DNA of 64,000 bases from Candidatus Multivorans sp. (GCA_965247095.1 OZ251997.1:3264001-3328000); one strand, 5' to 3'. Numbered from the stretch's first letter, positions 12,261 to 13,644 are shown. Notes: a model not told the origin generated them from the letters alone. Translations and numbers: made by a program.

Positions 12261-12395
12261 TCAGACCGTCAGGCGCTTGCGGCCCTTGCGGCGGCGGCGC
12301 GAGAGAATCGCCCGCCCGTGCCTCGTCCGCATGCGGGAGCGAAAGCCATGCTTCTTCTTGCGACGCCGATTGTTCGGCTGGTATGTCCTCTTCAC
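12261..12395 (-). CDS. rpmH: 50S ribosomal protein L34
   Basis: GTG start; [44 protein letters not shown], 44 aa; purine-rich RBS upstream. Too short for the ORF track. Confidence 0.96.
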
Positions 12396-12419
12396 GTTCT
12401 TTCCTTCCTACGGCGTTCT

Positions 12420-12943
12420 TGGCGGAGAGGGTGGGATTCGAACCCACGGACCGCTCGCACGGTCACAGGGATTCTCGGGAGACCGCCCGGCGGGCTCGTC
12501 CGAAGCATGGCGGAGAGGGTGGGATTCGAACCCACGGACCGCTCGCACGGTCACAGGGATTCTCGGGAGACCGCCCGGCGGGCTCGTCCGAAGTATGGCG
12601 GAGAGGGTGGGATTCGAACCCACGGACCGCTCGCACGGTCCAAGGATTCTCGGGAGACCGCCCGGCGGGCTCGTCCGAAGTGTGGCGGAGAGGGTGGGAT
12701 TCGAACCCACGGACCGCTCGCACGGTCCAAGGATTCTCGGGAGACCGCCCGGCGGGCTCGTCCGAAGTGTGGCGGAGAGGGTGGGATTCGAACCCACGGA
12801 CCGCTCGCACGGTCCAAGGATTCTCGGGAGACCGCCCGGCGGGCTCGTCCGAAGTGTGGCGGAGAGGGTGGGATTCGAACCCACGGACCGCTCGCACGGT
12901 CCAAGGATTCTCGGGAGACCGCCCGGCGGGCTCGTCCGAAGTG
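12420..12943 (-). repeat. Tandem array of six 87-88 bp units, each containing the 3' 45 nt of tRNA-Ser(CGA) including CCA
   Basis: TGGCGGAGAGGGTGGGATTCGAACCCACGGACCGCTCGCACGGTC recurs at 12420, 12508, 12596, 12683, 12770 and 12857 (and in the tRNA at 12944) with a near-constant 42-43 bp linker. Confidence 0.95.
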
Positions 12944-13033
12944 TGGCGGAGAGGGTGGGATTCGAACCCACGGACCGCTCGCACGGTCAACGGTTTTCGA
13001 GACCGCCCCATTCGACCACTCTGGCACCTCTCC
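12944..13033 (-). tRNA. tRNA-Ser(CGA)
   Basis: GGAGAGG acceptor, anticodon arm GCGGT-CTCGAAA-ACCGT, long variable arm, GGTTCGAATCC and encoded CCA. Confidence 0.95.
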
Positions 13034-13079
13034 TCGTTCGTCGGCCACTCGGCGCGTTTCGTCTTCTCCTGCCCCAGAA

Positions 13080-13169
13080 TGGCGGAGAGGGTGGGATTCG
13101 AACCCACGGTAGAGTTGCCCCTACACATGCTTTCCAAGCATGCACCTTCGACCACTCGGTCACCTCTCC
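13080..13169 (-). tRNA. tRNA-Ser(GGA)
   Basis: GGAGAGG acceptor, anticodon arm CATGC-TTGGAAA-GCATG, long variable arm, T loop and encoded CCA. Confidence 0.95.
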
Positions 13170-13170
13170 C

Positions 13171-13644
13171 TTAATCGAAAAGCCCGCTCGACCGTAGACG
13201 CCGGAAGAACGCGCGCAACAATGCTGAACTCTCCTCCGCCAGGACGCCGGAGCATACCGTGATTTGGTGATTCAGTCTCGGTTCGCGGACGAGGTTCCCG
13301 ATCGAGCCGCAATAGCCGCCCTTCGGATCCCGCGCCCCGAACACGAGCCGGTCCACGCGGGCGTTGACCATCGCGCCGGCGCACATGGCGCAAGGCTCGA
13401 GGGTGACGTAGACAGCGCAACCCTCCAGTCGCCAGCCCTGCTGTCGGGCGGCGGCCTGAGCTAGCGCGATCATCTCGGCATGCGCCATCGGGTCGCCCCA
13501 GGACTCCCTGCGGTTGTGCCCACGACCGACCACCTCCCCGTCGCGCACAACCACCGCGCCCACCGGAACCTCTCCGGCGGCAGCCGCGAGGCGGGCCTCG
13601 TTAAGAGCCAACCCCATGGCGGTGCGATCGTCCCCTGCGTCCAC
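13171..13644 (-). CDS. tadA: tRNA adenosine(34) deaminase
   Basis: GEVPVGAVVV, HAE and TLEPCAMCAGA zinc motif. Start approximate. Confidence 0.93.
   Translation of the reverse strand: MDAGDDRTAMGLALNEARLAAAAGEVPVGAVVVRDGEVVGRGHNRRESWGDPMAHAEMIALAQAAARQQGWRLEGCAVYVTLEPCAMCAGAMVNARVDRLVFGARDPKGGYCGSIGNLVREPRLNHQITVCSGVLAEESSALLRAFFRRLRSSGLFD

Follow-up and report, generated by a model that had tools for sequence, protein, structure and literature searches.

Results

Units derived from tRNA-Ser(CGA) lie upstream of rpmH and rnpA

We analysed a 64,000-nucleotide stretch of the single-contig, 4.6-Mb genome of Candidatus Multivorans sp. (GCA_965247095.1, OZ251997.1:3264001-3328000), hereafter the window, in which a tandem array of tRNA-derived units lies between tRNA-Ser(CGA) and the rpmH-rnpA genes; we read this array as a tRNA-linked repeat (TLR) locus. 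Window coordinates are counted from the first letter of the stretch, the window's own genome is designated G000, and other G numbers denote congeners. The array consists of six head-to-tail units on the minus strand (12420-12943; four of 87 bp and two of 88 bp), the first of which starts with the base directly after the CCA of tRNA-Ser(CGA), and Tandem Repeats Finder reports it with a period of 87, 6.5 copies and a score of 1085. The six units of 87-88 bp described in the original prediction, which was made from the sequence alone, were confirmed by sequence reading, ARAGORN and Tandem Repeats Finder. The features of the locus are listed here in the order of transcription of the minus strand, after the divergent RNA gene that precedes them.

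13771..13869, plus strand: small SRP RNA (ffs), divergent from tadA and upstream of dnaX (RF00169, 60 bits)
13171..13764, minus strand: tadA, tRNA adenosine-34 deaminase (NF008113 over cut-off, residues 46-192)
13080..13169, minus strand: tRNA-Ser(GGA) (ARAGORN, Rfam)
12944..13033, minus strand: tRNA-Ser(CGA), the repeat's parent (ARAGORN, Rfam)
12857..12943, minus strand: unit 1, 87 bp, with the four parts that follow
12925..12934, minus strand: decayed antisense copy of the anticodon-arm 5' strand, with one internal C.U mismatch; relatives match better
12915..12924, minus strand: sense block equal to tRNA nt 26-35, the anticodon-stem 5' strand and first three loop bases
12902..12914, minus strand: altered, longer anticodon loop and 3' stem strand, which differs among species
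12857..12901, minus strand: exact last 45 nt of the tRNA (variable arm, T arm, acceptor 3' strand, G73 and CCA)
12770..12856, minus strand: unit 2, 87 bp, identical to unit 1
12683..12769, minus strand: unit 3, 87 bp, identical to unit 1
12596..12682, minus strand: unit 4, 87 bp, identical to unit 1
12508..12595, minus strand: unit 5, 88-bp variant
12420..12507, minus strand: unit 6, 88-bp variant
12396..12419, minus strand: leader of 24 nt with a purine-rich ribosome-binding site; the same sequence follows the single unit of G069
12261..12395, minus strand: rpmH (L34), GTG start (ORF and NCBIfam)
11848..12258, minus strand: rnpA, RNase P protein, start codon uncertain (TIGR00188 over cut-off)
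11579..11851, minus strand: yidD (ORF and NCBIfam)
9838..11586, minus strand: yidC (ORF and NCBIfam)

NCBIfam confirms the identities of tadA, rpmH, rnpA, yidD, yidC and dnaX; the true start of tadA is probably about 45 codons inside the listed ORF.

Every unit ends in an exact copy of the 3' part of tRNA-Ser(CGA), 45 nt long in units 1-4 and 46 nt in units 5 and 6, which bears out the 45 nt first proposed, and the suggested likeness of the linker to the 5' side of the anticodon arm corresponds to a 10-nt exact match to tRNA nt 26-35 in each linker. Given the Tandem Repeats Finder score and a background in which one of 5000 random 600-nt windows contained a match of at least 15 nt to a tRNA, chance is excluded as the origin of these matches. 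As had also been described, the D arm is missing and the anticodon stem is unable to close; single-unit folding and tRNA-model scans, both put forward as checks in the original prediction, were run, and neither ARAGORN nor the Rfam tRNA model called a unit as a tRNA. The variation is polarised as claimed, the proximal four units being identical and the distal two carrying a +1 variant and junction changes. This polarity is what recent tandem duplication of neighbouring copies would give: the distal unit 6 keeps the first (5') bases found in the single unit of the sister genome G069, and the four identical proximal copies would mark a recent expansion. A CRISPR-like polarised array was rejected because the linkers copy one another, with only three variants among the six units, and long ORFs across the array were dismissed as a by-product of the 87-bp period. 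No match to RtT RNA (E. coli rttR) was found at E<=1 in window positions 11000-15000, nor at the gathering score in seven related loci; at the gathering level Rfam returned nothing besides tRNA for the repeats here and at the related loci, and hits to sX4 and Plastid-psbl-rps4 were dismissed as falling below the gathering score and reflecting tRNA sequence.

The rpmH GTG lies 24 nt past the CCA of the last unit and the tadA stop (13171) is 1 nt from tRNA-Ser(GGA) (13169), both distances as first described. Since no minus-strand terminator or sigma-70-like promoter match was found in window positions 11800-14000, and since spacers of 23-25 nt in eight unit-free congeners are too short for a promoter, the array is probably co-transcribed with rpmH; the proposed single transcript running tadA-tRNA-tRNA-array-rpmH-rnpA-yidD-yidC is likewise probable. 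Co-transcription of rpmH and rnpA is general across bacteria (PMC10941002). We suggest that rpmH has lost its own promoter in this genus, the operon now depending on the tadA-tRNA transcript. Other lineages may have a separate promoter for rpmH, as outside the genus, where tRNA-rpmH spacers are longer, a simple pattern matched -35/-10-like motifs in 5 of 25 of them (L140, L171, L172, L173 and L030).

Copy number varies within the genus

The locus was compared in 42 genomes of the genus and at 14 family-level and 16 order-level loci. Intact units are absent from 24 of the 42 genomes (G003, with three decayed copies, is counted among these), single in 14, and present in two, three, four and six copies in G068, G063, G064 and G000, respectively; linker-only remnants and internally deleted copies occur in G009, G010, G013 and G055. 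Nine unit-free genomes consist of five contigs or fewer, so that the absence of units is not only due to short-read loss. The comparison with related genomes, as advised in the original prediction, thus shows intact units in 18 of the 42 genus genomes, G000 included, and none at this locus outside the genus, where units are absent from all 30 family- and order-level loci; the order of tRNA-Ser(CGA) followed by rpmH is mostly retained at these loci.

A tree of the flanking sequences was built from 42 genus rows and two long-branch outgroups, and its deep forks are poorly resolved. G000, with six units, and its sister G069, with one, have flanks that are 97.2% identical, and counts also differ within other well-supported sister pairs: one in G018 and none in G020, none in G002 and one in G071, one in G023 and none in G008. 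The last CCA and the rpmH start are a median of 36 nt apart where units are present and 36.5 nt apart where they are absent, and in 8 of the 24 unit-free genomes the gap is as short as 23-25 nt, which makes the tight coupling to rpmH a trait of the tRNA gene in this genus and not of the array. At locus L058 of G070 (1568-1684), a single unit is followed by several tandem copies, of about 22 bp, of the last tRNA bases and trailer before rpmH; these may represent a second, shorter round of tail duplication.

Six is the maximum over the 42 genomes and was read from assembled contigs, not raw reads, both of which would fit a count inflated by assembly or consensus error. However, G000 is a single-contig genome, its array carries three internal variants arranged in blocks, and independent arrays of two, three and four units occur in single-contig relatives. 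An assembly artefact is unlikely, and inflation of the count of six extremely so.

Unit anatomy points to a fold-back at the anticodon arm

The order within a unit is a short variable trailer, an antisense anticodon-arm 5' strand in a more or less decayed state, its sense copy, an altered loop with the 3' strand, and the exact 3' half of the tRNA. Comparison among units identifies the 5' portion of the linker as a copy, in antisense, of the anticodon-arm 5' strand, and this copy folds back on the sense block. The tRNA-Leu units show it best: they match over 10 nt and all form a hairpin, whose 6 bp are the same in each of the 42 distinct units while the flanking bases vary. Five tRNA-Sec units have palindromic junctions (L183, L185, L186, L187 and L189). 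The antisense copy of the Ser units is decayed, retaining 8-9 of 10 matches in 5 of 19 units. As judged by eye, the anticodon loop and 3' strand are lengthened by about 2 nt in the Ser(CGA), Sec and Met units, and by about 10 nt in the Ser(TGA) array of G022. Ser, Leu and Sec units have one layout in common: the centre of the fold-back lies at the anticodon stem or just before it, and a disrupted loop and then the tRNA 3' half follow. Where Leu genes lack an encoded CCA (L108; Leu(TAG)), the units copy the genomic trailer and not CCA, which argues for an origin at the DNA level; retro-copying from mature tRNA was rejected on this ground. In the tRNA predictions, tRNA-Leu(TAA), tRNA-Leu(TAG) and tRNA-Pro(TGG) are called without an encoded CCA.

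Similar units follow other tRNA genes

We examined 47 tRNA genes of the window's genome, six doubtful ARAGORN calls and the tmRNA having been dropped. Six of them are followed by a non-tRNA copy of at least 15 nt of their own sequence, in one to six units each: Ser(CGA) with six, Leu(CAA) with three, and Met(CAT), Sec, Arg(CCT) and Leu(TAG) with one each. Matches at Ser(GGA) and Val(GAC), which are to neighbouring tRNA genes or to the Ser array, were left out of this count. At Glu(TTC) three units have tails of 10-14 nt, and at Gly(TCC) five units carry a 13-nt antisense piece. With such tails at six of the 47 genes, nothing ties the units to rnpA. Among congeners, Leu(CAA) units were present in all 29 loci fetched, which were the best-scoring of 42 genomes and are thus a biased sample, and about ten further Leu(CAA) loci matched the tRNA part only; of 29 congener loci parsed in each case, 13 had Sec units and seven had units of one tRNA-Met(CAT). 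When 185,579 species genomes were scanned for pairs of exact tRNA-Ser tails spaced 77-89 bp apart, there were 16 matches, 12 from this lineage and four from Alphaproteobacteria. The alphaproteobacterial units (L032, L034, L035 and L037; 79-82 bp) stand behind tRNA-Ser, and their linker holds an antisense T-arm copy.

Several of these loci have features of their own. Behind tRNA-Leu(CAA), G000:C1:1127585-1127852 holds three units of 88-90 bp with the design of the Ser array; this is the best place to study constraint, its 6-bp hairpin being the one that is invariant among the distinct units of the genus. The 136-bp units behind tRNA-Met(CAT) (G000:C1:2643150-2646085) contain a terminator-like hairpin, and the second is apparently split by an insertion of about 2.6 kb, beyond which the unit's 3' part resumes; by eye, the end of the insertion resembles an IS21-type repeat. 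One 77-bp unit follows tRNA-Sec (G000:C1:3567534-3567610), where relatives have zero to three, some of these with a junction at the anticodon stem that is a perfect palindrome. Arrays behind tRNA-Gly(TCC), tRNA-Glu(TTC) and tRNA-Glu(CTC) (G000:C1:3946700-3947160, 2456666-2456956 and upstream of 2535839) represent a second TLR design within the genome: their tails are short or decayed, and their antisense piece corresponds to the T arm. Only a hairpin remnant of a unit is left behind tRNA-Ser(TGA) (G000:C1:3030820-3030860); G022 has two full 102-bp units and a truncated third behind this gene (L075). A T-arm-region-like unit of about 27 bp is present three times between tRNA-Val(GAC) and tRNA-Val(CAC) (G000:C1:3616093-3616175), and two tRNA-Asn(GTT) genes (1189836 and 3332241) have their 5' 18 nt in common. 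Elsewhere in the window lie a 594-aa ORF (18093-19877, minus strand), which by eye resembles an IS1634-type transposase, and about 12 repeats of a 23-bp unit at 97% identity (61721-61999).

The array compared with known repeats

TLRs have been known since 1978; 22 are present in E. coli at ten loci, one to five at each, with tails of 18-19 bp identical to the upstream tRNA or rRNA, according to a study in which the tRNA-linked ones appear without assigned function or origin and an early function proposed for the tyrT repeat is described as retracted (PMC8144298). In the same study, three rRNA-linked TLRs give processed transcripts that bind Hfq and CsrA, their phenotypes are modest, and the repeated tail is suggested to be where RNase E acts; processing to a defined RNA is given for rrA/B/F and rtT, and the CsrA-binding scores of 19 tRNA-linked TLRs lie below 0.01 (PMC8144298). 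A preprint describes rttR as stress-responsive with an unknown mode of action (bioRxiv 10.1101/2024.07.17.603846).

The comparison with the E. coli tyrT repeat drawn in the original prediction was apt: the tyrV and lysQ repeats, which we fetched, combine 18-19-nt tails with an antisense piece of their own tRNA, of 10 nt in tyrV and 13 nt in lysQ, and a tail plus an antisense piece is thus a shared TLR design. Like the E. coli TLRs (the 178-bp tyrT/tyrV repeats with rttR, lysQ and rrA/rrB/rrF), the array follows the last tRNA of a cluster head-to-tail, with an exact copy of the tRNA 3' end and an inner antisense piece in the units, and such repeats occur at several loci per genome. It differs from them in its tail of 45-46 nt (variable arm, T arm and acceptor strand) against 18-19 nt, in units of 81-99 nt against about 155-180 nt, in an antisense piece that targets the anticodon arm whereas theirs targets the T arm or acceptor, and in its retained degenerate anticodon arm and its place in a probable operon before essential genes. 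Its units lie directly downstream of a tRNA, have a 3' end identical to it and occur in one to six copies at several tRNA loci; judged by sequence, the array is a TLR locus whose units have an unusually long tail and a fold-back at the anticodon arm, and which stands at the top of a range of zero to six copies. Intergenic VNTRs (variable-number tandem repeats) and minisatellites likewise vary in count among close relatives and have adjacent copies that are most alike, but the unit of this array is built from, and in register with, the adjacent tRNA gene. A study of yeast offers a precedent in palindromic junctions that later lose their inverted arm, and inverted-triplication or tandem-inversion-duplication products resemble the units in their sense-antisense-sense order, palindromic junction and loss of most of the inverted arm; unlike those products, only about 10 nt are inverted here in a unit of about 87 bp, and the origin would be deduced from sequence, not observed (PMC4689423). 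Our literature search, with most subscription papers outside it, found no report of such arrays in Acidobacteriota or before rpmH.

Predicted folds and the mini-tRNA and RNase P readings

The units had been proposed to be serylatable, anticodon-less mini-tRNA-Ser molecules, or RNase P substrates whose cleavage feeds back on the expression of rnpA, the gene for RNase P's own protein. Folding predictions for the window's units stack a bulged acceptor-like stem of 7 bp on the T arm with a probability of 0.69-0.81, and the duplex, at -7.6 kcal/mol against about -2.6 to -3.1 kcal/mol for shuffled linkers, beats 98-99% of shuffles; duplex energies and pairing probabilities were used because an ungapped helix test misses bulged stems, and they are kinder to this reading. 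The bulged acceptor-like stem of the original prediction was therefore recovered in these units, while the 'GAG' assigned to it is better read as part of the antisense anticodon-arm copy. Also in favour are the position of rpmH-rnpA downstream without an intervening terminator match and the fact that RNase P measures the elbow-to-acceptor distance (PMC10941002).

The stem is not general, however: just 8 of the 23 distinct Ser units give it a pairing probability above 0.5, and in Leu units it does not rise above shuffles (3.6 vs 4.3 bp). The sense block of the window's units pairs with the 5' strand of the variable arm, which is the main identity element for SerRS, leaving the variable arm a probability of 0.02-0.19; folds forced in silico to contain acceptor, variable and T arms lie 4.7-5.5 kcal/mol above the minimum, and without a D loop there is no G19-C56 elbow. 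These results speak against serylatable mini-tRNAs. Taken singly, units are no more stably folded than shuffles (z -0.4 to -1.5), and no single fold is common to the Ser units. As for tuning of RNase P's own gene, 24 of 42 congeners do without units at an equal CCA-GTG distance, two real upstream tRNAs already supply RNase P sites in every congener, and units are not confined to the rpmH-rnpA operon, standing also behind Leu, Met, Sec, Arg and Glu tRNAs. We regard both forms of this proposal as very unlikely. RNase P or RNase E may process the units. The comparison of sequences among relatives indicates that the array is not a dedicated RNase P regulator.

Three further calculations were set aside. 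Whole-precursor folding scrambled the identical copies (probability of a unit's own acceptor stem about 0) and ignores co-transcriptional folding and tRNA tertiary structure. For the rpmH ribosome-binding site, the presence of the array altered the predicted accessibility of two of eight positions (0.94 vs 0.41 unpaired), a result too dependent on the model. For 17 Ser units, RNAalifold paired the sense block with the CCA end over 5 bp; covariation is absent, and the pairing was not accepted as structure.

The attachment-site reading

The 3' halves of tRNA genes are standard identity blocks of integrase attachment (att) sites, and some integrases cross over in the anticodon loop. The units might accordingly be att-site scars or decoys, that is, a damaged attR, later amplified, from an element targeting the anticodon loop or the 3' half; the tRNA 3' half is indeed the repeated block, as a direct repeat like those of attL/attR and tandem island scars, and the anticodon loop is disrupted in every unit. 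However, no island was found between tRNA-Ser(CGA) and rpmH in any of the 42 genus genomes (largest spacer 548 nt), and longer spacers in four order-level genomes contained, by eye, ordinary ORFs and no second copy of the tail. The 18-nt tail has eight copies in the window's genome, all of them local, and none of its five tyrosine-integrase matches is near the locus, the nearest being about 467 kb away. An array without cargo, nearby integrase or distal copy, and with its anticodon loop destroyed, is unlike integrase att repeats, and att scars do not predict the fold-back junction. The decoy att sites of the original prediction thus find no support, and an att origin in general is highly improbable.

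Constraint, decay and the case for a selected RNA

The last 30 nt are invariant in all 42 tRNA genes and carry lesions in 5 of 29 units (G024, G011, G070, G060 and G069), in the T loop, T stem, acceptor or CCA. The variable arm differs between species, and that of the unit equals its own tRNA's in 13 of 18 genomes and another allele in five, a pattern that may reflect repeated, incomplete overwriting from the tRNA. Covariation was limited to one variable-arm pair in the Ser units, which mirrors tRNA alleles, and none was found in the Leu units.

An alternative is that the units are selected small RNAs or processing signals common to tRNAs with a long variable arm, copy number acting as a tunable dose. 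RNase E or RNase P would cut at the CCA ends and free RNAs that contain the hairpin, variable arm, T arm and unpaired acceptor strand; these would buffer decay of the downstream mRNA, or act as sponges or decoys, for example for proteins that bind the T arm or CCA, or for 5' tRNA halves, to which both the free acceptor strand and the antisense piece are complementary. The conserved blocks inside otherwise variable linkers, the long persistence of units and the single layout on five tRNA isotypes are in keeping with selection, as are the transcription, processing and Hfq/CsrA binding of the rRNA-linked E. coli TLRs and the RNase E site proposed in their tail (PMC8144298). A 96-nt contig from an RNA library of a relative (X18 record 10, depth 22) spans the tRNA end into the unit linker, with DNA carry-over possible; it is a weak hint of transcription. 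The four sequencing runs compared were all contigs, whose depth gives no measure of copy number, strand, ends or expression level. Another RNA contig (X15 record 5) bridges both tRNA-Ser genes. A processed end at 12410, where X15 record 2 and X18 record 9 stop matching, was rejected because the X18 contig continues for 40 unlike letters. Against a selected RNA stand the unit-free state of 24 of 42 congeners and of all 30 family- and order-level loci, the lack of a common fold in the Ser units, the covariation confined to one pair in Ser units and absent from Leu units, the build-up of lesions in unit tails and the sequestration in cis of an intact antisense piece. On balance we think selected RNAs unlikely, though they deserve serious consideration.

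Discussion

The explanation that we favour, and hold to be fairly probable, is that this TLR locus arose by fold-back duplication followed by recombinational gain, loss and homogenisation of units, which are co-transcribed and near-neutral here and expanded recently in this one species. In some early member of the genus, a local duplication of DNA would have produced one unit, with its fold-back junction close to where D stem and anticodon stem meet. The 45-bp identity between tRNA and unit would then have allowed unequal recombination or slippage to add or remove whole units in register, leaving the rpmH leader unchanged, and the same recombination would overwrite the 3' halves of units from the tRNA; in this way the 'perfect' CCA ends and identical neighbouring blocks could be explained without selection. 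As part of the tadA-tRNA-tRNA-rpmH-rnpA-yidD-yidC transcript, the units would probably be cleaved at the CCA ends, as tRNA trailers are, before being turned over, and the fitness effect at the locus would be small.

Several observations weigh against near-neutral fold-back duplication. Among 23 distinct Ser units, 21 keep the sense block of 10 nt exactly while adjacent linker bases vary, and the Leu hairpin is unchanged in every distinct unit. Zero copies, once reached, is an absorbing state; lineages with flanks that are only 73-80% identical nevertheless retain units. One layout recurs on Ser(CGA), Ser(TGA), Leu(CAA), Leu(TAA) and Sec, each time made from the tRNA's own sequence. Moreover, the Ser antisense piece stands above its shuffles (p<0.05) in only 5 of the 19 units tested, and the fold-back origin would have to be read from the junctions themselves. 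Since pure drift does not obviously explain the persistence, the conserved blocks and the recurring layout, a biased generating mechanism or mild selection is likely.

Relatives of this genome do not bear out the idea of an RNase P feedback array, and the puzzle that remains is that five long-variable-arm tRNAs in one genus have one layout made from their own sequences. It is conceivable, if quite unlikely, that the genus has a dedicated process or selected RNA design acting on long-variable-arm tRNAs, the units partnering 5' tRNA halves or acting as decoys at a dose set by copy number. If so, tRNA-length units would have been built separately for these five tRNAs with a fold-back at or just 5' of the anticodon stem, a loop interrupted by a small insertion and an unaltered 3' half, and 5' halves released by anticodon nucleases would pair with them through the free acceptor strand and the antisense piece, or the units would be decoys for T-arm- or CCA-binding enzymes. 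The genus offers a natural series of 42 genomes and several loci, with zero to six copies, remnants, decayed copies and a recurring fold-back at one position of the tRNA, and this series makes the question of how TLRs originate testable by comparative genomics.

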